Source: Pyrinomonadaceae bacterium
GTDB lineage: Bacteria; Acidobacteriota; Blastocatellia; Pyrinomonadales; Pyrinomonadaceae
Reading direction: 5' to 3'
DNA length: 64,000 nt
Assembly (NCBI GenBank): GCA_035296285.1
Contig: DATHBF010000449.1
Coordinates: 3,182 to 67,181 of the forward strand
Position numbers and translations under genes: made by a program. Of the stretch, positions 35,687 through 53,990 are shown in pieces. How positions within the stretch are numbered: the first letter of the stretch is position 1; every line of letters starts with the position of its first letter. The notes below the pieces were generated by a model, which had not been told where the DNA came from, searched no databases, and saw only the letters and a list, made by a program, of their open reading frames with translations.

Positions 35687-36502
35687 ATGGCAGAAGCCGA
35701 AGCCAAAGCCCAGGGGCTCGTCGGGTACGAGGTGCGCGAGGGCGTCGCCCTCCTCACGCTCGACGACCCGCCGGCCAACACCTACTCCTACGAGATGATG
35801 CAGCAGCTCGACCGCGCCGTCCTGCGCGCGCGCATGGACGAGTCGGCGCAGGCCATCGTCGTCACCGGCCGCGGCGAGAAGTTCTTCTGCGCCGGGGCCG
35901 ACATCTCGATGCTCTCCGAGGTCACGCCCGAGTTCAAATACTACTTCTGCCTCCACGCCAACGAGACGCTCTCGCGCCTGGAGCAGACGCCGAAGATCGT
36001 CGTCGCCGCCCTCAACGGCCACTGCGTCGGCGGCGGGCTCGAAGTCGCGCTCGCGGCCGACCTGAGAGTGGCGCGGCGCGGCGCGGGCAAGATGGGCCTG
36101 CCCGAGATCAACCTCGGCGTGCTGCCCGGCACCGGCGGCACGCAGCGCCTCGCCCGCGCCGTCGGCAAGTCGCGCGCCATCGAGCTGATGGCGACGGGCG
36201 AGCTCTTCGACTTCGAGCGCGGCGAACAGCTCGGCCTCGTCAACCGCCTCTTCGACGCCGCGACGGCCGCCGACTTCCTCGAACAGGCGCTCGCCTACGC
36301 CCGGCAGTTCACGGCGCCGGGCCGTGCGGCGATGGCGGCCGGGCGCATCAAGCGCAGCGTCCAGTCGGGCGCCGAAGTCCCCTTCGAGTACGGGCTGGCG
36401 CTGGAGCGCGAGCTGCAACAGCAGCTCTTCCAGTCCGAGGACGCGCGCGAGGGGATCAGCGCCTACGTCGAGAAACGCAAGCCCGTGTTCAAGGGGAAGT
36501 GA
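35687..36502 (+). CDS. enoyl-CoA hydratase/isomerase (crotonase) family protein
   Basis: GEKFFCAGADI...NGHCVGGGLEVALAADLRVA...EINLGVLPGTGGTQRL gives the crotonase oxyanion-hole motifs. Confidence 0.85.
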   Translation: MAEAEAKAQGLVGYEVREGVALLTLDDPPANTYSYEMMQQLDRAVLRARMDESAQAIVVTGRGEKFFCAGADISMLSEVTPEFKYYFCLHANETLSRLEQTPKIVVAALNGHCVGGGLEVALAADLRVARRGAGKMGLPEINLGVLPGTGGTQRLARAVGKSRAIELMATGELFDFERGEQLGLVNRLFDAATAADFLEQALAYARQFTAPGRAAMAAGRIKRSVQSGAEVPFEYGLALERELQQQLFQSEDAREGISAYVEKRKPVFKGK

Positions 36503-37293
36503 TGGGCTACGAGAACATCAAAGTCGAGTTCGACGCAGGTGTGGTGACGCTGACGCTGAACCGGCCCGAGAAGCTGAACGCCTTCGCGGGCCGCATGCGC
36601 CGCGACCTGGCCGAGACGCTGGAGCACGCGGGCGCGGACCCGGCGGTGCGCGTCGTCGTCATCACGGGCGCGGGCCGCGCCTTCTGCACGGGCGCCGACG
36701 TGAAGTACATGAACGAGCTGATGGAGCGCGACGACGCCGAAGAGTTCAGGCGGCTCCTGGGCGCCGGCCGGCGCGTGCTGACGGCCATCCGGCAGATGCT
36801 CAAGCCCGTCGTCGCCTCCGTCAACGGCCCCGCCTACGGCGCCGGCTTCAACCTCGCGCTCGCCTGCGACCTCCGGCTCGCCTCCGAGACGGCGACCTTC
36901 AGCCAGTCGTTCGTCAAGGTCGGCCTGCACCCCGACTGGGGCGGGTCTTACTTCCTGCCGCGCGCCGTCCCGTCGAACCTCGCCTGCGAGATGTTCTTCC
37001 TCGGCGAGCCGATTGACGCGGCGCGCGCCTACCACTTCGGGCTCGTCAACCGCGTCTACCCCGAGGGCGAGCTGCGGGCCGAGACGCGGCGGCTAGCCGA
37101 GCGCCTGCGCGACGCGCCGCACGCCTCAATCGCCGCCGCCAAGCGGGCCGTCTATCTGAGCGAGGGCGAGAGCCTGGAGCGGATGCTCCAGTACGAGACC
37201 GAGGCGCAGATTCAATGCTTCCACTCGCGCGAGGCCCGCGAGCGCGTTCGCGCCTTCCTCGAACGCCGCCCGCCCCGCGCCTCCGCACCCTGA
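36502..37293 (+). CDS. enoyl-CoA hydratase/isomerase family protein
   Basis: Begins MGYENIKVEFDAGVVTLTLNRPEKLNAF...GAGRAFCTGADV...NGPAYGAGFNLALACDLRLA. The ATG overlaps the upstream TGA (GTGATG). The 557-aa track ORF (35620-37293) is an out-of-frame upstream extension. Confidence 0.85.
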   Translation: MGYENIKVEFDAGVVTLTLNRPEKLNAFAGRMRRDLAETLEHAGADPAVRVVVITGAGRAFCTGADVKYMNELMERDDAEEFRRLLGAGRRVLTAIRQMLKPVVASVNGPAYGAGFNLALACDLRLASETATFSQSFVKVGLHPDWGGSYFLPRAVPSNLACEMFFLGEPIDAARAYHFGLVNRVYPEGELRAETRRLAERLRDAPHASIAAAKRAVYLSEGESLERMLQYETEAQIQCFHSREARERVRAFLERRPPRASAP

Positions 37294-37317
37294 ACGTTAC
37301 AACGCGCCTCAAAAACT

Positions 37318-37377: not shown

Positions 37378-37404
37378 AAGTTTTAATTTAACTTTCGGCC
37401 TCGC

Positions 37405-38493
37405 TTACGGCAGGTCGGGCTTCGACAGCGGCGAGCCCTTGTCGCCGACGTAGACGTTGAGGACGGTGAAGTTCGACGGGATGCCGGTGGCGAAGGCGTG
37501 GTTGGTCACGAGCAGCGAGCCGTGGCCGTCGAAGGCGATGTTGGCCGGCGAGTCGTAGGGGAAGAACGGGCTCCCGGCGGGGTTGGCGAGCCGCCCCGTC
37601 TCCGCCCCCGAAGGGTTGAGGATGGCGATGCCCGACGCGGCCGGCGTCGCGATGGCGACGTAGAGGTTGCTCGACTTGCCGAAGGCGATGCCGTCGGGGA
37701 TGTCGCCCGGCGCGAACGCCTTGAAGACCTTGAGGTCGGACGCCTGCGGCTGCTCGGAGAGCGGCAGCGTGTAGATGTAGGGCATGCCCGTCGGGTCAAT
37801 CGAGACGACGACGAAGAGCTTCGAGCGGTCGGGGCTCAGGCGGAGGCCGTTGGCGCCGATGCCGTTGGGGACGGTGCCGAGGCGCGCGTCCTGGAAGTAG
37901 ATCTGCGGGGTGCCGCCGCCCGCGGGGACGCGCCAGATGGTCGCCTGCAAGGAGTCGGTGACGTAGGCGCTGCCGTCCTCGTCGAACGCGATGTCGTTCG
38001 GGAGCGAGGGCGCGTCGAAGAAGGTCGGCGAGCAGGGCGCGTTGTTGCCGTCGCACGCGGGCAGGTCGGGGAAGGGCGTCGAGTAAGACTCCTGCGCGCC
38101 CGAGCCGGTGTCGATGCGGTACATGCCGAGCTGGATGTTCAGGACGTAGAGGCGGCCCTGGCCGTCGAAGGCGATGCAGGAGTTGGCGTGCTCGAACTGG
38201 AGGGCCTCGCCCTGCGTCGTGTAGGTGGCTTCCGTAGCGCCGGTGTCGCGGTTGAAGGCGACGACGGTCGAGGGGCCGGTGCCGGCCGTGCCGAAGCGGG
38301 CCGGACCCGAGACGTAAACCTTATTGCCTTTGACGGCGATGCCTTCGGGGAAGCCCGGCGGCGTCGGGAACGTGGCGAGGACTTGGGCGTCGCCGTAGGG
38401 GCGGGCGTGGGAGGCGGCGTTGGTTGAGGGAACGAGCGAGGTGACGGTGGCCGCGGCCAGGAGTGCGGCTGAGGCGATCTTCTTAAGATTCAT
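37405..38493 (-). CDS. secreted SMP-30/strictosidine-synthase-like beta-propeller protein
   Basis: Start at MNLKKIASAALLAAATVTSLVPSTNA (the ATG at 38493). Shows blade-like repeats: PEGIAV.GNKVYVS, PNDIAFDEDGSAYVTD, GANGLRLSPD, PDGIAFGKSSNLYVA, PANIAFDGHGSLLVTN. Confidence 0.6.
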   Translation of the reverse strand: MNLKKIASAALLAAATVTSLVPSTNAASHARPYGDAQVLATFPTPPGFPEGIAVKGNKVYVSGPARFGTAGTGPSTVVAFNRDTGATEATYTTQGEALQFEHANSCIAFDGQGRLYVLNIQLGMYRIDTGSGAQESYSTPFPDLPACDGNNAPCSPTFFDAPSLPNDIAFDEDGSAYVTDSLQATIWRVPAGGGTPQIYFQDARLGTVPNGIGANGLRLSPDRSKLFVVVSIDPTGMPYIYTLPLSEQPQASDLKVFKAFAPGDIPDGIAFGKSSNLYVAIATPAASGIAILNPSGAETGRLANPAGSPFFPYDSPANIAFDGHGSLLVTNHAFATGIPSNFTVLNVYVGDKGSPLSKPDLP

Positions 38494-38689
38494 TTTATGA
38501 TGGCGCCTTTCTTCGGTTGGTGGCGATGGGCTCGTGCGCGCGGGTGGTCGGGGTCGGCTTGCCGCGCGCGTTAAGGAACTCTCCTCTACACGCATAGGCG
38601 CAAAGGCCCCGCGAAAGGGATCAGGGGGCGCGAAAAAAAATTTTCGGCTTGTCGCCCGCGCCCTCCGCCCTTAAACTCTGGACTCACCT

Positions 38690-39475
38690 ATGAAACTTGC
38701 GAACAGGACAGCCTTCATCACGGGCGGCGGGCGCGGCATCGGGCGCGCGGTGGCCGAGGCGTTCGCCTCGGAGGGCGCGCGCGTCTTCGTCGTGGCGCGC
38801 ACGGCCGGCGAGATCGAGCGGGCGGCCGGCGAGATTTGCGCCGGGTGCGGCGAAGGGCAGGCGGGCCACGCCGTCTGCGACGTGTCGGACCCGCGCTCGG
38901 TGGCCGACGCCTTCAAGGCGGCCCAGGGGTTCTTCGGCCGCGGCGTGGACATCCTCGTCAACAACGCCGGGGTGGCCGAGAGCTCGAAGTTCGTCGAGAC
39001 GGACAACGAGTTCTGGGAGCGCCACCTCGCGGTCAACCTCTCGGGCACGTTCTACTGCATGAGGGCGGCGCTGCCCGCCATGATCGCCAGGGGCTTCGGC
39101 CGCGTCATCAACGTCGCCTCCATCGCGGGCAAGACCGGCGCGCCCTACATCGCCGCCTACACGGCGTCGAAGCACGGCGTGCTCGGCCTGACGCGCTCGG
39201 CGGCGATGGAGGTCGCCTCGAAGGGCGTCACCGTCAACGCCGTCTGCCCCGGCTACGTGGACACGGAGATGACGGCGCGGGCCGTCGCCGGCATCACAGA
39301 GAAGACGGGGCGCACCTCCGACGAAGCCCTCGAAACCCTCAAGCGCATGAGCCCGCAGCACCGCCTCGTCACGCCCGAGGAGGTCGCGGCCGTCGCCCTG
39401 CTCCTCGCCTCCGAAGAGGGGCGCGGCATCACCGGCCAGGCCATCAACGTGGACGGCGGCTCGGTGCTCTTCTAA
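38690..39475 (+). CDS. SDR family oxidoreductase (3-hydroxyacyl-CoA dehydrogenase/FabG-like)
   Basis: TGGGRGIG cofactor motif, NNAG, and S...YxxxK (YTASKHGV). Confidence 0.85.
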   Translation: MKLANRTAFITGGGRGIGRAVAEAFASEGARVFVVARTAGEIERAAGEICAGCGEGQAGHAVCDVSDPRSVADAFKAAQGFFGRGVDILVNNAGVAESSKFVETDNEFWERHLAVNLSGTFYCMRAALPAMIARGFGRVINVASIAGKTGAPYIAAYTASKHGVLGLTRSAAMEVASKGVTVNAVCPGYVDTEMTARAVAGITEKTGRTSDEALETLKRMSPQHRLVTPEEVAAVALLLASEEGRGITGQAINVDGGSVLF

Positions 39476-39486
39476 ACTCTTCCGAC

Positions 39487-39879
39487 ATGAAAGTAATCAA
39501 CCCAGCTTCACTCGGCCGGCCCTCGGGTTACTCGAACGGGCTGCTGACGCCGCCGGGCGTGAGGGTGTTGTTCGTCGCGGGGCAGATCGGCTGGGACGAG
39601 AACCGGAGGCTCGTCGGCGAGGACTTCGTCGAGCAGTTCGACCGCGCGCTCGCGAACGTGCTGGCGGTCGTGCGGGAGGCGGGCGGCGCGCCGGGCTCAA
39701 TCGGGCGCATGACGGTCTACGTGACGGACAAGCGCGAGTACGCCGCGCGCCTCGCCGCGGTAGGAGAACGCTGGCGCGCGCTGATGGGCCGCCACTATCC
39801 GGCCATGACGCTCGTCGAAGTCAAGGCCCTGCTCGAAGACGGCGCGAAGGTCGAGATAGAGGCCACGGCCGTGCTCTGA
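39487..39879 (+). CDS. RidA/YjgF/L-PSP family enamine/imine deaminase-like protein
   Basis: Begins MKVINPASLGRPSGYSNGLLTPPGVRVLFVAGQIG...RMTVYVTD...VEVKALLEDGAKVEIEATAVL. It lies inside the longer out-of-frame track ORF 38836-39879. Confidence 0.8.
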   Translation: MKVINPASLGRPSGYSNGLLTPPGVRVLFVAGQIGWDENRRLVGEDFVEQFDRALANVLAVVREAGGAPGSIGRMTVYVTDKREYAARLAAVGERWRALMGRHYPAMTLVEVKALLEDGAKVEIEATAVL

Positions 39880-39882
39880 ATC

Positions 39883-40689
39883 ATGCTCCAACCCAAATCA
39901 TTCCTTTACGAAGTGAGCGGCGGCGTCGCGACCATCCGGCTGAACCGGCCGGAGCGCCTGAACGCGCTGACCTTCGAGGTCTACCGCGAGCTGACCGACG
40001 CCTTCGCCGCCTTGCAGACGGAGAAGGACGTGCGCGCCGTCGTCATCACGGGCGAGGGCCGCGCCTTCTGCTCGGGCGGCGACGTGCGCGACATCATCGG
40101 CCAGCTGCACGGGCGCGACATCGAGGGGCTGCTCGCCTTCACGCGCCTGACGTGCGAGCTGGTGCGCAACATCCGCCGCCTGCGCAAGCCCGTCGTCGCC
40201 AGCCTCAACGGCACGACGGCCGGCGCGGGCGCCTGCATCGCCCTCGCCTCCGATTTGAGAATCGCCAGCAACGACGCGCGCATCGCCTTCCTCTTCGTCA
40301 AGGTCGGGCTCTCCGGCGCCGACATGGGCGCCGCCCACCTGCTGCCGCGCCTCGTCGGGCTCTCGAAGGCGACCGAGCTGCTCTACACCGGCGACTTCAT
40401 CACGGCCGAGGAGGCGCACCGCGTCGGCCTCTACAACCGCGTCGTCGCGCCCGAGGACCTGGAGAAGGAGACGCGCTCTCTGGCCGAGCAATTGGCGGCC
40501 GGCCCCTCGTTCGCGCTCGGCGTGACGAAGGAGATGCTTGAGCGCGAGATGGACCTCTCGCTCGACGCCGCGCTCGAACTCGAAGCGCAGGCGCAAGCCT
40601 TCTGCATGCAGCACCCGGACTACCGCGAAGCCTACGAGGCGTTCATGGAGAAGCGCGCGCCGCGCTTCCGGCACGGAGGAGAAGTATGA
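39883..40689 (+). CDS. enoyl-CoA hydratase/isomerase family protein
   Basis: Contains VATIRLNRPERLNAL...GEGRAFCSGGDV...NGTTAGAGACIALASDLRIA. Confidence 0.85.
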   Translation: MLQPKSFLYEVSGGVATIRLNRPERLNALTFEVYRELTDAFAALQTEKDVRAVVITGEGRAFCSGGDVRDIIGQLHGRDIEGLLAFTRLTCELVRNIRRLRKPVVASLNGTTAGAGACIALASDLRIASNDARIAFLFVKVGLSGADMGAAHLLPRLVGLSKATELLYTGDFITAEEAHRVGLYNRVVAPEDLEKETRSLAEQLAAGPSFALGVTKEMLEREMDLSLDAALELEAQAQAFCMQHPDYREAYEAFMEKRAPRFRHGGEV

Positions 40690-41975
40690 GCCGTCTGACC
40701 CGCACGCTCGCCGCCCTGTCGCTCGCCGCCTGTCTCGCCGCCGCGGCCTCCGCGCAGACGCCCGCCGACGGGACGCTGCTCGAACAGAAGACCTTCGACG
40801 GCTGGGACTACAACGGGCTCGCGCCCTGGCAGCGGGCCGTCTACGGCCGCGAGACGTTCGACGCCCTGCGCAACTCGGCCGACGTGGAGCTGCTTAAGAT
40901 CAGGTACGCGAGCGGCGGCCTGAGCGTCGCCGGCTTCATCGCCAAGCCGAAGAAGACGGCGGGAAGGCTGCCCGTCATCATCTTCAACCGCGGCGGCTTA
41001 GACGAAGGCGTCATCGGGATGTCGAACTTCAACTACATCCACGAGATGTTCCGCTACGCCTCCGAGGGCTTCGTCGTCGTCGCCTCGCAGTACCGCGGCG
41101 TGGACGGCGCGGGCGGGCGCGACGAGGTGGGCGGCGCCGACCTCGCCGACGTTTTCAACATCATGAAGCTCGCCCGCTCGCTCGACTACGTTGACGCCGA
41201 CCGCCTCTTCATGTGGGGCTACTCGCGCGGCGGGCTGATGACGCTGCAAGCCCTCCGCGACGGCGCGAAGCCGCGCGCCGTCGTCCTCGTCGGCGCCCCG
41301 ACCGACTACGGCGCGCTGCTGCCCGGCTTCGAGAGCTTCTTCCGCGCGGCCTTCCCCGACTACGACCGCCGCAAGGAGGAGCACCTGCGCAACCGCACGC
41401 CCCTCAACTGGGTCGAGAAGATAGACGCGCCCGTGCTCATCCTCCACGGCGGCGACGACAACCTCACGCCCGTCCAGTCGCTCAACCTCGCGCGCCGGAT
41501 GGAAGAGTCGGGCAAGCTCTACGAGCTGGTCATCTATGCCGGCGACAACCACCCCGTCCTCTTCAACCGCGAGGACCGCCTGCGCCGCACCGTTGACTGG
41601 TTCAAGAACCCGCGCAAGATGTCTGCGGCCTCGGCCGTCCGCAAGACGGTCGAGACGCACGGCGTCGAGGCCGCGCTCAAACAGTACCGGGAGCTGCAAA
41701 GGACGCAGGCCGACCGCTACCAGTTCGGCGAGGCCGACCTCAACCGCTTCGGCTACTCGCTGCTCGGCGAGGGGCGCGTCAAGGAGGCCGTCGAAGTCTT
41801 CAAGCTCAACGCCGAGCTGTTCCCGCAGAGCTTCAACACCTACGACAGTCTCGCCGAGGCTTACGCCGCCGCGGGCGAGCGCGAGCTGGCGATGAAGAAC
41901 TACAGGAAGTCGCTTGAGCTGAATCCGCAGAACGCGAACGCCGCGGACAGGCTGAAGGAGTTGGAAAAGAAGTAG
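40686..41975 (+). CDS. secreted S9-type alpha/beta hydrolase (prolyl oligopeptidase/DPP-like) with C-terminal TPR
   Basis: Signal peptide MSRLTRTLAALSLAACLAAAASAQ. Nucleophile elbow MWGYSRGG. ...ILHGGDDNLTP contains the acid residue region. The C-terminus (NAELFPQSFNTYDSLAEAYAAAGERELAMKNYRKSLELNPQN) is TPR-like. Confidence 0.7.
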   Translation: MSRLTRTLAALSLAACLAAAASAQTPADGTLLEQKTFDGWDYNGLAPWQRAVYGRETFDALRNSADVELLKIRYASGGLSVAGFIAKPKKTAGRLPVIIFNRGGLDEGVIGMSNFNYIHEMFRYASEGFVVVASQYRGVDGAGGRDEVGGADLADVFNIMKLARSLDYVDADRLFMWGYSRGGLMTLQALRDGAKPRAVVLVGAPTDYGALLPGFESFFRAAFPDYDRRKEEHLRNRTPLNWVEKIDAPVLILHGGDDNLTPVQSLNLARRMEESGKLYELVIYAGDNHPVLFNREDRLRRTVDWFKNPRKMSAASAVRKTVETHGVEAALKQYRELQRTQADRYQFGEADLNRFGYSLLGEGRVKEAVEVFKLNAELFPQSFNTYDSLAEAYAAAGERELAMKNYRKSLELNPQNANAADRLKELEKK

Positions 41976-42599
41976 ATGATGAGAGGAACGCTGGCCCTCG
42001 TCCTCCTCTTCGCCGTAACGGCTGGCGCGCAGGAGTTCGAAAGGGCGCGGGAGGCGCCGGGCGGCGGCCCCGCGGCCTTCGAGTTCGAGCTGTCGGGCTA
42101 CTCCTACCACGTCGCGTCGAACGGCAACGGGCGGAGGGCGAAGGGCGGGCGCGCGCGCCCCTTCAACCTGCGGCTCGAAGGCAGGGACTCCATCACGCGC
42201 CTCCGCTTCTCGAAGTTCAAGGACGACCTGCTGCTGCTCTGCGAAGTCTCGGACGGCGAGAGGCAAGGCGCCTTCGCCGCGCGGCTCGAACAGCCCTCGA
42301 TGCGCGCCCGCTGGAAGCTCGCCGTCCCCTCGTCTTCAATCGGGCCGGCGCTGCGCGAAGGCCAGCGCCTCTACCTCACGGGCCGCGGCTTCGTCGCCCT
42401 GCTCGACGTGGACCAGGGCGCATACGTCTGGCAACACGTTGACCTCCACGGCCGCCGCGGCCCCGGCTCCTTTGAAGCCTTCGAGCGGCCCGAGCGCGCC
42501 GGCCGCGAGGTTCTGTTCCGCGAGCGGCCGGTCTACAATGGCCCGGCGCGGACCGCCGTCGTGGACAACAAGACCGGCAGGCTCGTCCGCGTCGAGTAA
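41976..42599 (+). CDS. secreted hypothetical protein
   Basis: Signal peptide MMRGTLALVLLFAVTAGAQ. No recognisable family. The start abuts the upstream stop (TAGATG). Confidence 0.45.
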   Translation: MMRGTLALVLLFAVTAGAQEFERAREAPGGGPAAFEFELSGYSYHVASNGNGRRAKGGRARPFNLRLEGRDSITRLRFSKFKDDLLLLCEVSDGERQGAFAARLEQPSMRARWKLAVPSSSIGPALREGQRLYLTGRGFVALLDVDQGAYVWQHVDLHGRRGPGSFEAFERPERAGREVLFRERPVYNGPARTAVVDNKTGRLVRVE

Positions 42600-42614: not shown

Positions 42615-43787
42615 ATGCAGCGAGACACGTTCATCGAAGAGACGCCCTTCTTCACGGAAGAGCACGCGCGGCTGGCGGCCGGCGTCGCGGACTTCGCCGC
42701 GCGCGAGGTCGAGCCGCGCGCGGCCGACGGCGAAGACGGCGACACCGACGCCGCCTTCCGCGAGCTTCTGAGCCTGCTCGCGCAGGCGGACCTTCTGCGC
42801 TTCGCGGTGCCGCCGGCCGACGGCTCGCCGCTCGACGCGCGCTCTCTCTGTGTCGTGCGCGAGGCGCTGGCCTTCTCTTCCCCTCTGGCCGACCTCGCCT
42901 TCGTCATGCAGGGCCTCGGCACCTACGCCATCAGCCTCGCCGCGCACGAGCACGTCCGCGACTTCTGGCTCGGCCGGGCTCGCTCGGGCAAGTCCGTCGC
43001 CGCCTTCGCGCTCACCGAGCCCGAGGCCGGCTCCGACGTTTCCGGCATCCAGACGACGGCCGCGCGCGACGGCGACTCCTTCCGCATCCGCGGCCGCAAG
43101 TGCTTCATCTCGAACGCGGGCGTCGCCGACTTCTACACGGTCTTCGCGCGCACGGGCGAGCGCGAGGGCGGGCGGCCCGAGATTTCGGCCTTCATTGTCG
43201 GCGCGCGGATGCCCGGCTTCCGCCTGCTGGCGCGCACGCGCCTCGTCGCCGCCCACCCCATCGGCGAGATAGAGTTCGACGACGTGCGCGTCCCCGCCGA
43301 GGACATGCTCGGCGCCGAGGGCGACGGCTTCCGGCTGGCGATGATGACGATGGACATGTTCCGCGCCAGCGTCGGCGCCGCCGCCTGCGGGATGGCGCGG
43401 CGCGCGCTCTTCGAGTCGATCAACCACGCCCGCCGCCGCCGCCAGTTCGGCGTCACGCTCGCCATGCAGCAGCTCATCCAGGAGAAGCTGGCGACGATGC
43501 AGACGGAGCTGGACGCCGCGCGCCTTCTGGTCTACCGCGCCGCGCACCTCAAGGACTCGGCCGCGCCGGGGCCGCACCTGACGCGCGCCGCGAGCGAGGC
43601 CAAGCTCTTCGCCACCGAGGCCGCGCAGCGCATCGTGGACGAGGCCGTGCAGATTCACGGCGGCTACGGCCTCGTCCACGGCGCCGTCGTCGAGCGCCTC
43701 TACCGCGACGTGAGGGCGCTTCGCATCTACGAGGGCACCTCCGAAATCCAGAAGCTCGTCATCGCCCGCGAGATGCTGAAAGAATAG
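42615..43787 (+). CDS. acyl-CoA dehydrogenase
   Basis: Contains FALTEPEAGSDVSGIQTTA...FISNAGVADFY..., and a C-terminal ...RIYEGTSEIQKLVIAREML with the catalytic Glu region. Confidence 0.85.
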   Translation: MQRDTFIEETPFFTEEHARLAAGVADFAAREVEPRAADGEDGDTDAAFRELLSLLAQADLLRFAVPPADGSPLDARSLCVVREALAFSSPLADLAFVMQGLGTYAISLAAHEHVRDFWLGRARSGKSVAAFALTEPEAGSDVSGIQTTAARDGDSFRIRGRKCFISNAGVADFYTVFARTGEREGGRPEISAFIVGARMPGFRLLARTRLVAAHPIGEIEFDDVRVPAEDMLGAEGDGFRLAMMTMDMFRASVGAAACGMARRALFESINHARRRRQFGVTLAMQQLIQEKLATMQTELDAARLLVYRAAHLKDSAAPGPHLTRAASEAKLFATEAAQRIVDEAVQIHGGYGLVHGAVVERLYRDVRALRIYEGTSEIQKLVIAREMLKE

Positions 43788-43807: not shown

Positions 43808-44944
43808 ATGCGCGTTAACATCATCGGCGGGGGGCCGGCGGGGCTCTACTTCGCGCTGCTCCTGAAGAAGCACGACCCGGCGCACGAGGTCGCGGTCTAC
43901 GAGCGGAACCCGCCGGACGCGACCTTCGGCTGGGGCGTCGTCTTTTCGGGGCGCACGCTCTCGAATCTGCGCGAGGCCGACGCCGACTCGCACCGCGCGC
44001 TCTCGGAGAGCTTCGAGACGTGGGACAACGTGGACGTGCTCCTGCGCGAGAGCCGCGTCACGGTGCGCGGCAACCACTTCTCCGCCATCGCGCGCATCCG
44101 GCTCCTGAACATCCTCCATGAACGCTGCGCGCGCCTCGGCGTCCGCCTTCTCTTCCGCGAGGAGGCGGCCGACTTCGGCAAGCTCTCGGCCGACTGCGAC
44201 CTGCTCGTCGGGGCCGACGGCGTCGGCAGTCTCGTGCGCCAGCACTACGCGGAAGAGTTAGGGCCGGAGCTGGGCGAGGGGCGCAACAGGTACATCTGGT
44301 ACGGCACGCGCCGCCTCTTCCACGGGCTGACGCTCACCTTCCGCGAGTCGGAGGCGGGCGTCTTCGCCGCGCACTCATACAAGTTCAGCCCCGACACGAG
44401 CACCTTCATCGTCGAGTGCGACGAAGAGACGTGGGGGCGTTCGGGATTCTCCGCGATGTCCGACGCCGAGACGCGCGCGCACCTCGCCGGGGTCTTCCAA
44501 AAGGACCTCGACGGCCACGAGCTTCTGTCGAACAACTCGCGCTGGATAAATTTTCTACTCGTGAGGAATCGGCGCTGGAGCGCGGGCAACGTCGTGCTGC
44601 TCGGCGACGCGCTGCACACCGCCCACTTCTCCATCGGCTCGGGCACGAAGCTCGCCATGGAAGACTCCATCGCCCTCTTCCGCCTCTTCGCCGCCGGCCT
44701 CGACGTGCCCTCGGCCCTCGACGAGTTCGAGCGCACGCGCCGGCCCGTCATCGAAGAGTACCAGCAGGCCGCGCACGAGAGCCGCCTCTGGTTCGAGCGC
44801 GCCGCCGACCACACACACCTCGCGCCCCTGCCCTTCGCCTACAGCCTCATGACCCGCAGCAAGCGCCTCGACCACGAGAGCCTGCGCCGCCGCGACCCCG
44901 ACTTCGTCGCCGCCTACGAGAAGGAAATAGCCGGTAAAGAGTAA
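43808..44944 (+). CDS. FAD-dependent aromatic-ring (acyl-CoA) monooxygenase, equivalent to the N-terminal half of 2-aminobenzoyl-CoA monooxygenase/reductase or salicylyl-CoA 5-hydroxylase
   Basis: MRVNIIGGGPAGLYFALLLKK gives a GxGxxG FAD fold. Also ...LVGADGVGSLVR and ...VLLGDALHTAHFSIGSGTKLAMEDS. The ATG is at 43808 inside the longer track ORF. The partner OYE-like reductase is encoded convergently at 45413-46900. Confidence 0.75.
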   Translation: MRVNIIGGGPAGLYFALLLKKHDPAHEVAVYERNPPDATFGWGVVFSGRTLSNLREADADSHRALSESFETWDNVDVLLRESRVTVRGNHFSAIARIRLLNILHERCARLGVRLLFREEAADFGKLSADCDLLVGADGVGSLVRQHYAEELGPELGEGRNRYIWYGTRRLFHGLTLTFRESEAGVFAAHSYKFSPDTSTFIVECDEETWGRSGFSAMSDAETRAHLAGVFQKDLDGHELLSNNSRWINFLLVRNRRWSAGNVVLLGDALHTAHFSIGSGTKLAMEDSIALFRLFAAGLDVPSALDEFERTRRPVIEEYQQAAHESRLWFERAADHTHLAPLPFAYSLMTRSKRLDHESLRRRDPDFVAAYEKEIAGKE

Positions 44945-44967
44945 TCGGCAGCCGCCACAGAAACTAA

Positions 44968-45010
44968 ATCGGGGGCCGACGCGAGGATGTCGCCCCCGAT
45001 TTCTTTATCT
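44968..45010 (+). terminator. rho-independent terminator
   Basis: ATCGGGGGC-cgacgcgaggatgtc-GCCCCCGAT followed by TTCTTTATCT. It lies 24 nt after the stop at 44944. Confidence 0.7.
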
Positions 45011-45048
45011 GCGGCGCGAAAACGTATTCCCACACCGGCAAAATTAAT

Positions 45049-45384
45049 TACTGCAAGGCGAAAATCTATTGCCGCATAAATTTAACCTATCACTTCGGTG
45101 TGAAATATAAACGCTACGAATGCGAAACGGACCACTACAACGTGAAAACGGACCGATGTATAAATAAATTCTATTACTTCAGGGTTGAATATAATTACTA
45201 CAAATGTAAATCCTATTAGTACAAGGTGAAAGCGGACTGGTACTAGGTGAGAATCTGTTAATTCACTGTCTCAGAGTACTGTTGTAAGGTGAGAATCTAT
45301 TAATTCGCCGTCTTAGAGTACTGCTGCAAGGTGCAATCCTCCGTACGCAGCCGCAAAACTTCCGTCGGCGACGTGAAAACGCCC
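45049..45384. repeat. AT-rich array of 16 consecutive degenerate 21-nt units (consensus about YRCTRCAAGGTGAAAAYCKRY), including two near-identical 42-bp units
   Basis: Cutting the sequence every 21 nt from 45049 places GTGAAA, GCGAAA, GTGAGA, GTGCAA or a close variant at unit columns 10-15 in at least 10 of the 16 units. Units 2, 6, 11 and 13 are a distinct subtype and lack it. Register is kept without any indel. Positions 45247-45288 and 45289-45330 form a 42-bp tandem duplicate. The region is visibly AT-rich compared with its flanks. Confidence 0.8.
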
Positions 45385-45412
45385 GTCGTCAACCGCGGCG
45401 AGGAACGTTCCT

Positions 45413-46900
<1,488 letters not shown>

Positions 46901-46992: not shown

Positions 46993-47069
46993 CTGCCACC
47001 TGTCACAATTCCTAAACCCTTCGCGGGCGCGCTTCGTACGGTGGAGTTGTGCCGGGGGTTTTAAGGCTG

Positions 47070-47519
47070 ATGGGTAAGTGGGAACACTTTTTCGGGCGTT
47101 TGTTCGGGGGCGCTTTCGGCGGCCGGGGTCACGGCCTGCCGGCGGACGCTTCCGCGCCGCGCCGCGCGGGCGCCGAGTCCTTCGCCAGCCGCTTCGAGCG
47201 AGCCGGCGTCCGCCTCTTCAAGAACAACTGCCTCGTCCTCCCCTGGGTCCGCGAGCGTGAAGAGATTGAAGCCTCCGTGCAAGGCGCGCGGGCCGATCTG
47301 CTGCGCTCGTGGAACGTCTACCGCGACCGCGTCGGCTCGAAGCGCACGGCCGCGCTGGCCGAGTCGGACTGGCGCCGCGCCGTCGGCGCCTTCCACCGCC
47401 AGACCGCCGACCTCAACCGCCTCATCGCCGCCTACAACCTCAAAGCCCCCTCCGCCGCCTTCCGCAAATGGCCCCTCCACGCCGACCGCGAACTCGAAAG
47501 CGTCACCCGCGACGCCTGA
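47070..47519 (+). CDS. DUF1992 (DnaJC28-like C-terminal domain) protein
   Basis: FKNNCLVLPWVREREEIE...ADLNRLIAAYNLKAPSAAFRKWPL resembles the DUF1992 pattern. This is from memory. The ATG at 47070 is preferred over the GTG at 47049. Confidence 0.5.
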   Translation: MGKWEHFFGRLFGGAFGGRGHGLPADASAPRRAGAESFASRFERAGVRLFKNNCLVLPWVREREEIEASVQGARADLLRSWNVYRDRVGSKRTAALAESDWRRAVGAFHRQTADLNRLIAAYNLKAPSAAFRKWPLHADRELESVTRDA

Positions 47520-47607: not shown

Positions 47608-48804
<1,197 letters not shown>

Positions 48805-48806
48805 AC

Positions 48807-49667
48807 ATGACGAATGAATACGGCGGCAAAACCCCGCTCTCCTACAACAAGTACCTGCGCGTGCGCGACCTGATCGCGTTGCAGGACTGTCTGTCGGAGC
48901 CCGCGCACCACGACGAGTTGCTCTTCATCACCATCCACCAGGCTTACGAGCTCTGGTTCAAGCAGGTCTTGCACGAGATAGACTTCGCCGCGGCGGCCGT
49001 CGCCGAGGACCGCGCGCCCGCGGCCGCCCGCGCCCTCGCGCGCGTCGTCGAGATCGAGAAGATGCTCGTCACGCAGATTCACATCCTTGAGACGATGACG
49101 CCCATCAACTTCCTCGGCTTCCGCGACCAGTTGAACCCGGCGAGCGGCTTCCAGTCCATGCAGTTCCGCGAGATCGAGTTCGCCTCGGGCCTGAAGGACG
49201 AGGGCATCCTCCGCGCCTTCCGCGACGACGAGTTCGCCTCCGAGCGCCTGCGCGCGCGCTTCGACGCGCCGACCCTCGGCGAAGCCTTCTTCTCGTACCT
49301 CACGCGCCGCGGCCTCGACGCCCCGGCCGACGACCCCTCGCAGAGTGAGGAGGAAAGGCGACGCGCCTACGACCGCCGCGTCCTCGCCGCCCTCGAAGTC
49401 CTGACCCACTTCGAGACGCGCTACGAGGAGTTCCAACTCGCCGAATCGCTCATCGCGCACGACGAATACTTCTCGCTCTGGCGCCACCACCACGTCAAGA
49501 TGGTCGAGCGGATGCTCGGCACCAAGAAGGGCACGGGCGGCTCCGAGGGCGTCGGCTACCTGCGGACCACGCTCGACAAGAAATTCTTCCCCGAACTCTG
49601 GGAGGCGCGCACACACCTCGACACCACGCACGGCCACGCCGGCTGCCCTTTCGCCGGCCACAGCTAA
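48807..49667 (+). CDS. kynA: tryptophan 2,3-dioxygenase
   Basis: SYNKYLRVRDLIALQDCLSEPAHHDELLFITIHQAYELWFKQVLHEID is the canonical bacterial TDO N-terminal region. Confidence 0.85.
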   Translation: MTNEYGGKTPLSYNKYLRVRDLIALQDCLSEPAHHDELLFITIHQAYELWFKQVLHEIDFAAAAVAEDRAPAAARALARVVEIEKMLVTQIHILETMTPINFLGFRDQLNPASGFQSMQFREIEFASGLKDEGILRAFRDDEFASERLRARFDAPTLGEAFFSYLTRRGLDAPADDPSQSEEERRRAYDRRVLAALEVLTHFETRYEEFQLAESLIAHDEYFSLWRHHHVKMVERMLGTKKGTGGSEGVGYLRTTLDKKFFPELWEARTHLDTTHGHAGCPFAGHS

Positions 49668-49681
49668 ACTCTCAGCCGCCT

Positions 49682-51229
49682 ATGTCCCACGTCGAATTTC
49701 CGGAACGATTCAACATGGCGGACTACTTCCTCTACCACAACGTGGAGGAGGGGCGCGAAGCCAAGGTCTGCCTCTACTACGAGGACGAGCGTTACACCTA
49801 CGGCGACGCCGTGCGTCTGTCGAACCGCGCCGGAGGCGCCCTGCGCGAGTCGGGCCTGAGAGTCGAAGACCGCGTGCTGTTGGTGCTGCCCGACTGCCCG
49901 GAGTTCGTCTGGACGTGGTTCGGCGCGGCGCGGGCTGGCGGCGTCATCACGATGGTCAACCCGCTGCTGCCGGCGGACGACTACCGCTACTACCTCGAAT
50001 ACACGCGCGCCCGCGTCGCCGTCGTCCACGAGTCGCTGCTTGAGAACTTCACGCGGGCGGCCGAAGGCGCGCGGCATCTACAGAGCGTGCTGGTCGTCGG
50101 CGGCGAGCGCGGCCCGTTCCATTCCTTCGCCGAAGTCTTGAACGCGCAAGCAGACGAGCTGACGCCCGCCGACACGCACCGCGACGACCCGGCCATCTGG
50201 CTCTTCACCTCCGGCTCGACCGGCCACCCGAAGGGCGCCGTCCACCTCCAGCACGACCTGCCCTTCAACACGGAGTGCTACGCCAAGCGCGTCCTCGGCG
50301 TGAACGAAAATGATTTGACCGTCTCCGTCCCCAAGCTCTTCTTCGGCTACGCGACGGGCACGAACCTGCTCTTCCCCTTCTCCGTCGGCGGCGCCACCGC
50401 GCTCTTCTCTGAGAGGTCAACGCCCGACAAACTCTTCGAGGTCATCGAACGCTACCGCCCCACCGTCCTCACCAGCGTGCCGACGATGATCGGCGCCATG
50501 CTCAACGCCGAGAACTCGGCCGCGCGCGACCTGTCCTCCCTGCGGATGTGTCTCTCGGCCGGCGAGGCGCTGCCCGTCGAGTTGTACCGCCGCTGGGTCG
50601 AGACCTTCGGCGTCGAGATTCTCGACGGCATCGGCTCGGCCGAGATGTTCCACATCTACATCACGAACCGGCCCGGCGACGTGAAGCCCGGCAGCCTCGG
50701 CCGCATCGTCGAGGGCTACGAGGCCGAGGTAGTTGACGCCGACGGCCGCGCGCTCCCCGCGGGCGAGATGGGCACGCTCCGCGTCAAGGGCGACTCGGCC
50801 GCGCTCTGCTACTGGCAGGCGCACGAGAAGTCGAAGCAGACGTTTGCCGGCGACTGGTGCACGACCGGCGACCAGTTCCACGTAGACGCCGACGGCTATT
50901 ACTGGTATCACGGCCGCACCGACGACATGCTCAAGGTCTCCGGCATCTACGTCGCGCCGGCCGAGATCGAGAACTGCCTGCTCCGCCACGAGGCGGTCGC
51001 CGAGGCCGCAATCGTCGGCCACGACGACGGCTCCGGCCTCGTCAAGCCCAAAGCCTTCCTCGTCCTCCGCGAAGGCCACGCCCCCGGCGAGGACCTCGCG
51101 CGCCAGATTCAGGACTTCGTCAAGTCGCGCCTCGCCCCCTACAAGTACCCGCGCCGGGTCGAGTTCGTCGCCTCGCTCCCGAAGAACGACCGCGGCAAGA
51201 TAGACCGGAAGGCGCTCAAGACGCGGTGA
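49682..51229 (+). CDS. benzoate-CoA ligase family enzyme (probable 2-aminobenzoate-CoA ligase)
   Basis: Contains FPERFNMADYFL...WLFTSGSTGHPKGAVHLQHDL...GEMGTLRVKGDS...GDQFHVDADGYYWYHGRTDDMLKVSG...PKNDRGKIDR. These are ANL motifs with a benzoate-CoA-ligase-type N-terminus. Confidence 0.8.
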   Translation: MSHVEFPERFNMADYFLYHNVEEGREAKVCLYYEDERYTYGDAVRLSNRAGGALRESGLRVEDRVLLVLPDCPEFVWTWFGAARAGGVITMVNPLLPADDYRYYLEYTRARVAVVHESLLENFTRAAEGARHLQSVLVVGGERGPFHSFAEVLNAQADELTPADTHRDDPAIWLFTSGSTGHPKGAVHLQHDLPFNTECYAKRVLGVNENDLTVSVPKLFFGYATGTNLLFPFSVGGATALFSERSTPDKLFEVIERYRPTVLTSVPTMIGAMLNAENSAARDLSSLRMCLSAGEALPVELYRRWVETFGVEILDGIGSAEMFHIYITNRPGDVKPGSLGRIVEGYEAEVVDADGRALPAGEMGTLRVKGDSAALCYWQAHEKSKQTFAGDWCTTGDQFHVDADGYYWYHGRTDDMLKVSGIYVAPAEIENCLLRHEAVAEAAIVGHDDGSGLVKPKAFLVLREGHAPGEDLARQIQDFVKSRLAPYKYPRRVEFVASLPKNDRGKIDRKALKTR

Positions 51230-51306
51230 GCGCCGGGCGGGCGCCGCGGCGGCGCCCGCCCGGCGCAGACCTCATCTTTTCCCGGGCCTCAGACCCCGGA
51301 CACCGA

Positions 51307-53523
51307 ATGGCAAACGAACCGAGGACCCTCGACGATGGTCGCTACCTGATCAAGCGGCTGCTGGGCCGCGGCGGGGCGGGGCGCGTCTACCTCGCGGAAG
51401 ACACGCAGGGGGAGCCGGGCCGCGAGACGTGCGCCATCAAGGAACTGGACCCGCGCTCGCAAGACCCCGAAGAGCGGCAGCAGGTCCGCGAGCTCTTCGC
51501 GGACGAGGAGAACTACCTCAGCGAGTTGGGCGGCTACAACGGCCAGATACCGATGCTGTACCGTTGCTTCACGGCGCCGGGCGCCGACGGCGGTGAGCGG
51601 CGCTACATCGCGCAGGAGTACATCGAGGGCTCGTCGCTGAGCGACGAGCTGAGAGACGGCGTGCTCGACGAGACTGAGGTCAAGCGGCTCCTCGTCCAGC
51701 TCCTGCCCGTGCTCGCTCACATCCACGCGAAGAGTTATATCCACCGAGACATAACCCCCTCGAACATCATCCTGCGCCGCGGCAGCCGCCTGCCCGTGCT
51801 CATAGACTTCGGCACGGCCAAAGAGATGGAGACGACCGTCGTCGCCACAGGCAAGCGTGATGACGCCTACACGCGCGTCGTCGGCAAGAAGGGTTACTGG
51901 GCGCCCGAACAAGAACGGGGAAGGCCCGTCTACGGCAGCGACCTCTACAGCCTCGGCGTGACGGCCATCCAACTGCTGACGGGCGTCGGGCCGTTGGAGC
52001 TGGCGCGCGAGTCACTGACCGAACGGGGCGACCCGCTGTCCGAACGGCTGCGCTGGCGCGAGCAACACGCCCCACACGTCTCGCCCGAATTCGCTGCGGT
52101 CCTCGACCGCGCGGTCGCGCCCGACGTTAAGGACCGTTACGATGGCGACGCGCGCCAGATGCTCGTGGCCGTCGAGGAGCTGGGGGTCACCGACGATGAG
52201 TTGCTGCGCCAGCGGCTCGGCGACGCGTGGGAAGCGATCTCGGCGCGCGAGCCGCGCCTCCCATCCGGCTTCAAGCAGTGCAACGGCAGCACGCTCCACC
52301 TCGGCGGGGCGCCGGACCCGGCGGCCCTCGGCAAAGTGTTAGACGTGGTCTTTAAGCGGCGCACCGGGGCCTTCGCGGTACTGCGCGAGCCGCGCCCGAT
52401 TAACTGCGGCTACTACGTCAGCAGAGAGGATGAATACTGCCCGCAATGCGGGGCCTACAACGCCCTCCGGCTCGGCGACCGCCAGTCCCACCTGCTGCAA
52501 CACGCGCCGGAGGTGTACATACAGCGGTGGCACCACAAGACTTACTCCGAGATGATAAGGTTACGCGAGATACCTGACGTTGATAACATCGTCGGGAGAG
52601 TGTCCAACTGGCTAGGCGCTGAAGACCTCCTGGACTGGTTCGGGCGGGGCGCCGCCTTCATTCTGACGGCGGGCGCCGCCCTCGGGGGGCTGGTCCTCGG
52701 GCTGCTCGTGAGCCTACGCCTCTTCGAGACCACCCTTACTATCACGGCCTTCACCCTCGGCGCGGCTGTTACCGGGGCGCTCACCGGATTCTTTTTGTGT
52801 GAGCTGATTAACGAGCAGCAGAACACCGAGCAGCACCGCCGGAAGGCCGCGGAGATACAGCGTTGGCTGCACGCGTTGAAAAAGCAGAGGACGGAGCTGT
52901 CCGACAGCCTGCGCGAGAAGACGGAGGCGCGCCGGGCCGAAGGGGCGTGCCTCGACAGCGTGGACGGTCAGCTCAAGGTCGAGTTGGAGAGCATCGCGCG
53001 GCAGGGGGAGCGCATCCGCGAGCGACTCAACTCGGCGCGCAGGGCAGCGCCCGAGGTCGTCGCGGAGAGCGAGAAGCGTCGGGAGGAGGAGGGGCTGCGG
53101 CGCGCACTCCAGCGCAGCGTCGAGCGGCAGCGCAAATACGAGGTCAAGGTTGCCGAGATTGACCTGCTCCGGCGCCACAACGAGTTACAGGCATTCCGCT
53201 GGAGCAAGGGCATCACCCACGAGAATGGCGCGGCCATCGAGGCGGAGTTGGAGGCGCTGACCGCGCGGCTCGACGGCATCTACGGCGAGCTGCGTCTGAC
53301 GGACGCGCTCGAATCCGAGGCCGGCAAGCTGTGGCTCGCGCGCATCCTGCACGCGCGCAAGGTACTGCTCAAAGCGCGCGGGCAACTCTTCCGTCACATG
53401 AACCGGCTGGCCGTGAACGAGACGGCCGCCGCGCCCGCCGAAATGCTGCGCAACCTCAACCTGCTGAATGCCTACCTCTGCTTCGACGACTTCCTCGGCG
53501 AGTACCGCGCGCTCAAGTCCTGA
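51307..53523 (+). CDS. Ser/Thr protein kinase with zinc-ribbon-like segment, two predicted TM helices and a long C-terminal coiled coil
   Basis: Hanks kinase motifs: GRGGAGRVYLA, AIKEL, HRDITPSNIIL, DFGTAK, GYWAPEQ. The segment CGYYVSREDEYCPQCGAYN follows. A hydrophobic stretch is AAFILTAGAALGGLVLGLLVSLRLFETTLTITAFTLGAAVTGALTGFFLCELI. About 230 aa of charged heptad-like sequence follows. The ATG is at 51307 inside the track ORF 50857-53523. Confidence 0.8.
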   Translation: MANEPRTLDDGRYLIKRLLGRGGAGRVYLAEDTQGEPGRETCAIKELDPRSQDPEERQQVRELFADEENYLSELGGYNGQIPMLYRCFTAPGADGGERRYIAQEYIEGSSLSDELRDGVLDETEVKRLLVQLLPVLAHIHAKSYIHRDITPSNIILRRGSRLPVLIDFGTAKEMETTVVATGKRDDAYTRVVGKKGYWAPEQERGRPVYGSDLYSLGVTAIQLLTGVGPLELARESLTERGDPLSERLRWREQHAPHVSPEFAAVLDRAVAPDVKDRYDGDARQMLVAVEELGVTDDELLRQRLGDAWEAISAREPRLPSGFKQCNGSTLHLGGAPDPAALGKVLDVVFKRRTGAFAVLREPRPINCGYYVSREDEYCPQCGAYNALRLGDRQSHLLQHAPEVYIQRWHHKTYSEMIRLREIPDVDNIVGRVSNWLGAEDLLDWFGRGAAFILTAGAALGGLVLGLLVSLRLFETTLTITAFTLGAAVTGALTGFFLCELINEQQNTEQHRRKAAEIQRWLHALKKQRTELSDSLREKTEARRAEGACLDSVDGQLKVELESIARQGERIRERLNSARRAAPEVVAESEKRREEEGLRRALQRSVERQRKYEVKVAEIDLLRRHNELQAFRWSKGITHENGAAIEAELEALTARLDGIYGELRLTDALESEAGKLWLARILHARKVLLKARGQLFRHMNRLAVNETAAAPAEMLRNLNLLNAYLCFDDFLGEYRALKS

Positions 53524-53576
53524 TAGCCGCAACGCCCGCCTTCCGCCCGCCGCCCCTGCCTGCTATTCTCCGGCCC

Positions 53577-53990
53577 ATGCCTTTCTCCACGCGTATCCCC
53601 GTCCGCTTCGGCGACACGGACCCGGCCGGGCTCGTCTACTACCCCGTCCTCCTTCACTACTGCCACGCGGCGATGGAAGAGTTCTTCGCCGCGCGCTGCG
53701 GGGTGAGTTACGCGCGCCTCGTGGCGGAGCGGCGGCTCGGCTTCCCGACCGTCAACGTGCGCGCGGAGTTCTCCGAGCCCTTCGTCTACGGCGACACGGC
53801 CGAGGTCGAGGTCTGGGTCTCGCGCGTCGGCCGCAGCTCCGCCACCTTCGAGTACAGGCTGCGCCGCGCCTCCGACTCCGCGCCCTGCGCCAGCGCCACG
53901 CTCGTGCAGGTGGCGATGAGCCTGGACGAGCGCCGCGCCGTGCCCGTCCCCGCAGACCTCCGCCGCGCCTTCGAGCAAAGCCCCGCATGA
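53577..53990 (+). CDS. 4HBT/YbgC-like hotdog-fold acyl-CoA thioesterase
   Basis: Begins MPFSTRIPVRFGDTDPAGLVYYPVLLHYCHAAMEEFF...FPTVNVRAEF, with the catalytic Asp in the GDTD context. Confidence 0.75.
   Translation: MPFSTRIPVRFGDTDPAGLVYYPVLLHYCHAAMEEFFAARCGVSYARLVAERRLGFPTVNVRAEFSEPFVYGDTAEVEVWVSRVGRSSATFEYRLRRASDSAPCASATLVQVAMSLDERRAVPVPADLRRAFEQSPA

Follow-up and report, generated by a model that had tools for sequence, protein, structure and literature searches.

A putative tryptophan and anthraniloyl-CoA degradation cluster of Pyrinomonadaceae with a stand-alone monooxygenase and a separate Old Yellow Enzyme-family flavoprotein

Introduction

The coenzyme A (CoA)-dependent aerobic route for the degradation of anthranilate (2-aminobenzoate) has been known since about 1990, and the 2-aminobenzoyl-CoA monooxygenase/reductase (ACMR) and abm clusters of Azoarcus evansii were reportedly described by Schuhle et al. 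in 2001. Here, we analyze a 64,000-nt stretch of DNA from a Pyrinomonadaceae bacterium (the whole stretch is referred to as the window, and all coordinates are window coordinates), and focus on a gene cluster that encodes a stand-alone FAD monooxygenase (MO) and OYE490, a flavoprotein of the Old Yellow Enzyme (OYE) family, together with enzymes of tryptophan and aryl-CoA metabolism (Table 1).

The system closest to this cluster is that of A. evansii, with ACMR (AbmA) and its abm clusters (Schuhle et al. 2001, as cited in PMC4539516 and PMC3534580). ACMR gives off 5-hydroxyanthraniloyl-CoA under limiting NADH, and both hydroxyanthraniloyl-CoA, in vivo, and a C7H8O4-CoA species have been observed in Arthrobacter (PMC3534580). 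The steps that follow ACMR are still unknown, and GapMind omitted the route for lack of knowledge (PMC9007349).

Set against the abm gene content as given in reviews, rather than gene by gene, the window cluster resembles the Azoarcus system in its benzoate-CoA-ligase-family enzyme for the putative activation of anthranilate, its FAD hydroxylase homologous to the N-terminal half (N-half) of ACMR, its OYE-family flavoprotein, and its beta-oxidation-type enzymes. Unlike the Azoarcus system, it has a stand-alone hydroxylase, an OYE of another lineage with an insert and a three-cysteine remnant, and kynurenine genes within the cluster. Salicylyl-CoA 5-hydroxylase of Streptomyces (SdgC) belongs to the same family as MO, and the two systems share a ligase/hydroxylase/thioesterase logic, a 4HBT_2 thioesterase gene being a frequent neighbor; however, SdgC is fused and MO is not, and the window cluster contains no gentisate dioxygenase gene. 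Because kynurenine genes and a Rid-family deaminase are present, the substrate here would almost certainly be the amino analogue of salicylate and not salicylate itself. The window system is thus predicted to work like the Azoarcus abm pathway, yet, as judged from its proteins, it falls outside the fused ACMR/SdgC family, because the fusion and an orthologous reductase are both absent. Our overall explanation, to which we assign a probability of roughly 0.6, is an Azoarcus-type hybrid route in which MO is complemented in trans by OYE490.

Results

A stand-alone relative of the N-half of ACMR and SdgC

An earlier reading of this DNA, made from the letters alone (the sequence-only reading), had presented MO and the OYE as the separated halves of a fused ACMR/SdgC-type enzyme. 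For MO, the kinship was borne out. The protein matched NF006101, the NCBIfam model named for bifunctional salicylyl-CoA 5-hydroxylase/oxidoreductase, at 461.7 bits (E 4e-138) over profile positions 1-387 of 768 (family cut-off, 1078), and it shared 50-54% identity with the N-half of fused forms. At 378 aa, it reaches just to the domain boundary of these enzymes and is without their C-terminal OYE domain. In a tree of 17 stand-alone and 26 fused sequences, the two kinds lay on two sides of one branch (SH-aLRT 100%), a tree that is unrooted and without an outgroup and so gives no direction (loss of the reductase domain versus fusion). MO stands alone in 23 of 24 genomes of the genus, and it does so in other families as well, at 55-60% identity.

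On these comparisons, we take MO to be, among stand-alone proteins, the nearest to the ACMR/SdgC N-half, in a clade that is sister to the fused forms. Since it occurs on its own across the genus and several families and forms its own clade in the tree, it is best regarded as an old stand-alone lineage rather than the product of a recent break in a fused gene.

In other Pyrinomonadaceae (P0002-P0021; L034 of G102; G073), MO carries a C-terminal extension of ~300 aa, composed of a Hint_2/intein-like segment and a DUF559 endonuclease, which joins MO at the same point where ACMR carries its OYE domain.

OYE490 is not the C-half of ACMR

MO stops precisely where the first domain of the fused enzymes gives way to the second, MO and OYE490 both match NF006101, and their genes adjoin, all of which would fit a gene fission, that is, two halves of a split ACMR/SdgC-type fusion, with the OYE as orthologue of the C-terminal reductase domain. 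The properties of OYE490 itself make such a fission highly improbable. Against 97 fused proteins, OYE490 was 26-28% identical in full-length alignments (82-99 bits among the top matches in BLASTP), whereas the C-terminal halves (C-halves) share 46-58% identity among themselves and stand-alone OYEs of 375-396 aa are 36-44% identical to OYE490 (175-245 bits). Its score on NF006101 was 122 bits, lower than that on the BaiCD and mycofactocin FadH/OYE models (about 140 bits), and lower even than the 151 bits that a generic NemA-like OYE of the window reached on the same fused model. In the tree, OYE490 and its orthologues formed a tight clade nested in stand-alone relatives, parted from the ACMR C-halves by long branches (0.98 and 0.71). 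When 1.84 billion representatives were searched exhaustively, only 515 clusters matched OYE490 at E 1e-30, and its best 150 relatives included no MO-OYE fusion. Finally, the tail of OYE490 differs from that of the C-halves, being derived from iron-sulfur (Fe-S) OYEs (see below), and one sampled genome (G167) has OYE490 alongside an intact fusion.

Contrary to the sequence-only reading, then, OYE490 is not the closest homolog of the ACMR/SdgC C-half but falls in a separate clade at 26-28% identity, so that the split-fusion claim stands for MO as a relative of the N-half and falls for OYE490 on identity, profile scores, and tree alike. Fission of an ACMR gene did not give rise to the MO and OYE490 genes; rather, this lineage pairs MO with OYE490, a component of the pathway in its own right.

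The NemA-type OYE mentioned above is encoded at 4663-5718 (-) and matches PRK10605 with 349 bits; a TetR-family regulator gene lies nearby, at 6256-6891 (-).

OYE490 resembles Fe-S OYEs

In an alignment of OYE490 orthologues, H242, H245, and Y247 were nearly invariant and Q125 was invariant; by analogy with YqjM and OYE1, we take these to be the catalytic His-His-Tyr residues and the FMN-binding Gln, respectively. The protein contains a helical insert of ~70 residues (roughly 134-205), and C442, C448, and C460 in its tail are invariant. The tail alone found its best solved matches in FadH, histamine dehydrogenase, and trimethylamine dehydrogenase (TMADH), and the alignment equates the three cysteines with Cys1, Cys3, and Cys4 of the [4Fe-4S] motif, the position of Cys2 being occupied by Thr or Ser. 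The shorter relatives of 375-396 aa keep all four cluster cysteines.

An AlphaFold2 (AF2) model of OYE490 (pLDDT 86.9) has an OYE barrel with a Foldseek probability of 1.00 to OYEs, and its query TM-scores were highest for 2-naphthoyl-CoA reductase (6qkg, 0.61) and FadH (1ps9, 0.60), compared with 0.54-0.56 for classical OYEs. FadH and 2-naphthoyl-CoA reductase work on CoA thioesters. In contrast to these Fe-S enzymes, OYE490 stops at residue 495, ~35 residues past its last cysteine; PF00724 was its sole domain match, and it contains neither an FAD nor an NAD(P)H (or ADP) domain. The Thr in place of Cys2 and the long helical insert set it further apart. Because both the tail cysteines and the model match this subgroup, OYE490 appears to descend from the Fe-S (FadH/TMADH-type) OYE lineage, without the FAD and NAD(P)H domains.

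The cluster as a probable tryptophan and anthranilate pathway

We think it very likely that the cluster breaks down tryptophan via anthranilate and anthraniloyl-CoA, the substrates of the individual enzymes being assigned by homology and gene context. The CoA-dependent aerobic anthranilate logic of the sequence-only reading is supported by the family of the ligase, the operon, a shared downstream module, and the kinship of MO. The ligase belongs to the benzoate-CoA-ligase family (TIGR02262, 565 bits, above the cut-off of 375), and its best solved relatives were the anthranilate-CoA ligase AuaEII (4wv3, 446 bits) and benzoate-CoA ligase (2v7b, 442 bits), scores so alike that they do not separate the two specificities. 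Its gene is preceded by those of tryptophan 2,3-dioxygenase (TDO) and a kynureninase-like enzyme, with intergenic gaps of 2 bp (kynureninase-like/TDO) and 14 bp (TDO/ligase), and both of these proteins exceed their Pfam cut-offs. Four further genomes of the genus and three further genera of the family show this gene set in synteny (tblastn of window proteins), and the cluster is therefore not a chance juxtaposition.

The loci of three fused ACMR-like proteins, found with MO as the query, were examined, and in two of them the fused gene has a matching downstream module beside it. In Amycolatopsis minnesotensis (L044), kynU, TDO, and PaaX genes are followed by genes for a luciferase-like protein, fused ACMR, creatininase, ligase, SDR-family dehydrogenase (SDR), enoyl-CoA hydratase (ECH), RidA, and acyl-CoA dehydrogenase (ACAD); in a JGI metagenomic contig (L045), the order is luciferase-like protein, fused ACMR, SDR, ECH, RidA, and ACAD. 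The window SDR, ECH3, RidA, and ACAD are orthologous to the members of these modules (38-57% identity): the SDR is 44-52% identical to SDRs adjoining fused ACMR genes, ECH3 is 52-57% identical to the sole crotonase in the fused-ACMR clusters and is thus the corresponding crotonase, and the ACAD is 44% identical to that of the Amycolatopsis cluster. In all, L044 has kynU, TDO, ligase, SDR, ECH3, RidA, and ACAD in common with the window (27-52% identity) but differs in its fused ACMR, luciferase-like oxidoreductase, creatininase-family hydrolase, and PaaX regulator, and it has no OYE490. In both L044 and L045, fused ACMR is immediately preceded by the luciferase-like gene, and the window cluster has none.

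A Ribonuc_L-PSP gene holds the place of RidA in the fused-ACMR clusters. With RidA thus conserved in the module, a role on the enamine/imine product is plausible. By eye, the RidA-like protein presumably has Met in place of the carboxylate-binding Arg of Escherichia coli RidA, and such a change would suit a substrate without an alpha-carboxylate.

As the sequence-only reading had noted, neither kynB nor a transcription factor gene is present: no PF04199, creatininase-family, or helix-turn-helix gene occurs among the cluster proteins. The formamidase (deformylase) step must be encoded outside the cluster, and other contigs of the same genome carry four PF04199 genes and one creatininase-family gene. 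The S9 alpha/beta hydrolase of the cluster, with its signal peptide and its lack of conservation in syntenic clusters of the genus, is an unlikely formamidase. Creatininase-family hydrolases, which are candidate deformylases, occur in two clusters, those of G167 (L027 4235-5008) and Amycolatopsis (L044 11161-11916). On contig C335 of the window's genome (L042 4568-8319), genes for TDO-like (124 bits), kynureninase-like (113 bits), O-methyltransferase, and cyclase/arylformamidase-like proteins stand in one row; we rejected this set as the "real" kynurenine genes because its TDO-like and kynureninase-like proteins are more divergent than those of the window, and it possibly serves a secondary-metabolite or modified-tryptophan route.

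Could the cluster instead act on another aryl acid, such as salicylate or benzoate in an Sdg-like manner, or make a hydroxyanthranilate-derived metabolite, with the kynurenine genes as unrelated neighbors? NF006101 bears the name of salicylyl-CoA 5-hydroxylase, the ligase scores nearly the same on benzoate-CoA ligase, and the closest solved structure to MO is VioD, a biosynthetic hydroxylase. The kynU, TDO, and ligase genes, however, form one tight operon, and their linkage recurs in Amycolatopsis and across Pyrinomonadaceae; a KynB-family cyclase gene lies directly upstream of MO-OYE490 in two other genera; the Rid-family deaminase is fixed in the module; and neither a gentisate dioxygenase nor biosynthetic scaffold genes were found. 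Such an alternative is, therefore, very improbable.

Linkage of OYE490 and MO in Acidobacteriota

The distribution of the two proteins was surveyed in a sample of 300 Acidobacteriota genomes, with orthologues of OYE490 defined as at least 62% identical over the full length and the stand-alone MO type as at least 52% identical. Each was present in 13 genomes and both in 10; OYE490 was present in 10 of 13 genomes with stand-alone MO versus 3 of 27 with the fused type, counts that overstate the signal in favor of our explanation, as the sampled genomes are related and not independent, and that are indicative only. In 8 of the 10 genomes holding both, the genes are adjacent, in one of three arrangements: convergent, as throughout Pyrinomonadaceae; MO followed by OYE490 (G033, G037, G034); or OYE490 followed by MO (G193, G262). 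This adjacency spans several families and, because it persists through three gene orders, provides good evidence that MO and OYE490 share a function, the neighborhood being kept whatever the gene order.

The wider neighborhoods bring in further parts of the pathway. In G037 and G033, a unit consists of KynB-family cyclase, MO, OYE490, and thioesterase genes. A metagenomic contig (L024) has the order SDR, RidA, ECH, ACAD, OYE490, and MO, which is that of the G167 operon with a stand-alone-type MO in the position of ACMR. A PIN/PhdYeFM toxin-antitoxin pair is inserted between ACAD and OYE490 on this contig (2897-3624).

OYE490 might also carry out a different, later reduction, for example of an enone or enoyl-CoA after deamination or dehydration, as a counterpart of the luciferase-like oxidoreductase; MO would then release aromatic 5-hydroxyanthraniloyl-CoA, to be handled otherwise, for example by thioesterase hydrolysis as in the Sdg salicylate route. 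Consistent with this, OYE490 and intact fused ACMR occur together in the G167 operon, and in two clusters from outside the phylum the gene immediately before fused ACMR is a Bac_luciferase gene, with no OYE490 present. A 4HBT_2 thioesterase is a recurrent neighbor (downstream of OYE490 or ACMR in G037, G033, and G167, and of the ligase in G028), and G028 has a set of thioesterase, ligase, amidohydrolase, and MO genes with OYE490 on another contig. On the other hand, OYE490 follows stand-alone MO far more than the fused type, no dioxygenase or other 5-hydroxyanthranilate enzyme was recognized in the cluster, and the beta-oxidation-type module requires a non-aromatic substrate. We regard a later reduction as an unlikely, though not negligible, role.

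Setting and gene map

The window comes from a metagenome-assembled genome that is 87% complete, on a contig of 75 kb, and has a GC content of 65-71% across most of its length. The nearest protein matches carry Pyrinomonadaceae or Acidobacteriota names, and the best-matching DNA sequencing run was a biocrust metagenome, probably that of the original sample, which points to a soil-crust bacterium; no RNA run was listed among the sequencing runs matching the DNA. Gene identities were taken from Pfam and NCBIfam scans and from reading of the open reading frames (ORFs), and all genes named in the sequence-only reading were recovered with small coordinate corrections only (Table 1).

Table 1. Features of the cluster in window coordinates, with the basis of each identification
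Feature	Position	Strand	Basis
ECH1 crotonase (enoyl-CoA hydratase/isomerase family)	35687-36502	+	PF00378, 190 bits
ECH2 crotonase (PaaG/alternative oxepin-CoA-hydrolase-like)	36502-37293	+	NF046063, 221 bits (below cut-off of 300); TIGR02280, 209 bits
Beta-propeller (SGL-family) gene	37405-38595	-	
SDR (3-hydroxyacyl/3-oxoacyl-type dehydrogenase)	38690-39475	+	adh_short_C2, 214 bits
RidA-like (YjgF/Rid family), candidate enamine/imine deaminase	39487-39879	+	ORF reading; TIGR00004, 52.8 bits (below cut-off of 106)
ECH3 crotonase	39883-40689	+	NF006107, 393 bits (above cut-off of 330)
S9 alpha/beta hydrolase with TPR and signal peptide	40686-41975		
207-aa protein, hydrophobic signal-peptide-like N-terminus	41976-42599		
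ACAD (acyl-CoA dehydrogenase)	42615-43787	+	Acyl-CoA_dh N, M, and C domains
MO, stand-alone FAD monooxygenase, putative anthraniloyl-CoA 5-hydroxylase	43808-44944	+	NF006101, 461.7 bits
Convergent AT-rich spacer with repeats	44945-45412	no strand	46% GC; 42-bp tandem repeat
OYE490, 495-aa OYE-family flavoprotein	45413-46900	-	PF00724, 125.9 bits
156-aa protein, first gene of kynU-kynA-ligase operon	47049-47519	+	genus orthologues 53-59% identical, same place
Kynureninase-like pyridoxal phosphate enzyme	47608-48804	+	Aminotran_5, 108 bits; KYNU_C, 54 bits; TIGR01814, 142 bits (below cut-off of 246)
TDO (tryptophan 2,3-dioxygenase)	48807-49667	+	PF03301, 203 bits; TIGR03036, 256 bits (below cut-off of 391)
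Aryl-CoA ligase, putative anthranilate-CoA ligase	49682-51229	+	TIGR02262, 565 bits (above cut-off of 375)
Ser/Thr kinase with zinc-ribbon-like segment	about 51289-53523		
4HBT_2 hotdog thioesterase	most likely 53577-53990	+	PF13279, 66.8 bits

The ECH1 orthologues of the genus (79-83% identity) lie at the same end of the cluster, and the ATG of ECH2 overlaps the stop codon of ECH1. The start of OYE490, an ATG at 46900, agrees with the MWHPE N-terminus of all orthologues. For the thioesterase, the start is a probable one, as the Pfam domain begins past the kinase stop and the first Met there opens MPFSTRIPVRFGDTD. As had been described from the sequence alone, the MO and OYE490 genes lie on opposite strands and converge across a repeat-bearing spacer (468 bp). 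Weak partial copies of the spacer (66-77% identity) occur elsewhere in this genome, on contigs C307, C556, and C394, and its repeat had no match in the equivalent spacers of relatives (90-730 bp); it resembles a dispersed intergenic repeat rather than a part of the pathway.

Three genes, for an SGL-family beta-propeller, the S9 hydrolase, and the 207-aa protein, sit within an otherwise cytoplasmic CoA-ester operon (37405-38595 and 40686-42599), and the 207-aa gene alone is conserved in place within the genus. Atlas and Pfam gave weak beta-propeller leads only for the 207-aa protein (<=0.92), and the 156-aa protein had no Pfam, NCBIfam, or usable Atlas match. No counterpart of the Ser/Thr kinase turned up in the syntenic loci of relatives that were examined, and the S9 hydrolase had one weak partial match in such loci; as neither is conserved in syntenic clusters, both look like passengers from the gene content of relatives.

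Discussion

The chemistry that we propose for the cluster is deduced from its genes. TDO and the kynureninase-like enzyme would convert tryptophan via N-formylkynurenine and kynurenine to anthranilate, the deformylase being encoded elsewhere, and the ligase would form anthraniloyl-CoA. The stand-alone MO would then hydroxylate anthraniloyl-CoA at C5, and OYE490 would supply in trans the ene-reduction that fused ACMR carries out by its C-terminal domain, with the dienone tautomer or free 5-hydroxyanthraniloyl-CoA as its substrate and 2-amino-5-oxocyclohex-1-ene-1-carbonyl-CoA as its product. The RidA-like protein may take off the enamine nitrogen, after which ECH3, the SDR, ACAD, ECH1, and ECH2 would bring about ring opening and shortening. 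The hotdog thioesterase probably releases CoA from dead-end aromatic thioesters.

The part of this scheme assigned to OYE490, that of an in-trans ring reductase, is suggested by its family and its linkage to MO, and we hold it more tentatively than the scheme as a whole, at a little below even odds. It is tempting to speculate further that OYE490 is a free-standing dearomatizing reductase, which makes the cyclohexenone CoA ester from released 5-hydroxyanthraniloyl-CoA or from the dienone tautomer, perhaps via the remnant Fe-S site, but in this specific form we consider the idea doubtful. If true, ring hydroxylation would be uncoupled from ring reduction, which would explain a possible loss of the ACMR reductase domain in this lineage and also the presence of OYE490 beside the intact ACMR of G167, where it would salvage the re-aromatized by-product.

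Several observations weigh against the in-trans scheme. The operon of G167 encodes creatininase, SDR, RidA, ECH3, ACAD, OYE490, fused ACMR, and thioesterase, and its ACMR is apparently intact, with a single 758-aa ORF, both Pfam domains, and conserved C-half motifs. The presence of OYE490 and an intact ACMR in one operon argues that the role of OYE490 is not tied to an absent reductase domain, and that it has, or had, a role beyond replacing one. Two genomes (G061 and G043) carry OYE490 apart from their fused ACMR, and three (G029, G311, and G055) have stand-alone MO without an OYE490 orthologue. The in-trans scheme also needs either a re-aromatizing intermediate to be passed between proteins or an aromatic aminophenol thioester to be reduced, and no precedent for such a two-protein transfer or for aminophenol-thioester reduction was found in the literature searched. 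Indeed, this search returned nothing that links old yellow enzyme with aminobenzoyl-CoA, or anthraniloyl-CoA with kynureninase and enoyl-CoA hydratase. At the entry to the pathway, in addition to the near-equal ligase scores, TDO and the kynureninase-like protein fall under the NCBIfam equivalog cut-offs and are, for this reason, best described as putative divergent family members. A complex prediction for MO and OYE490 gave a score of 0.00, which is no verdict and is evidence neither way.

Action of OYE490 on a released hydroxylated product is the simplest account for both the G167 operon and the clusters with stand-alone MO. If this is true, OYE490 would be useful beside ACMR, and the reductase domain of ACMR would become dispensable.

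The gain from this cluster is incremental, in that it represents a variant of a known pathway and no new principle. Nevertheless, the cluster and its relatives yield a short list of conserved candidates for the steps after ACMR, namely the Rid-family deaminase, one crotonase, the SDR, and the ACAD. They also offer what is apparently a natural form of the ring-attacking enzyme made up of two proteins, in which hydroxylation and reduction would be separable for study, and a reductase, OYE490, of a type without a characterized member. For the organisms themselves, the cluster hints at an ability to use tryptophan or anthranilate among the widespread Acidobacteriota of soil and biocrust.

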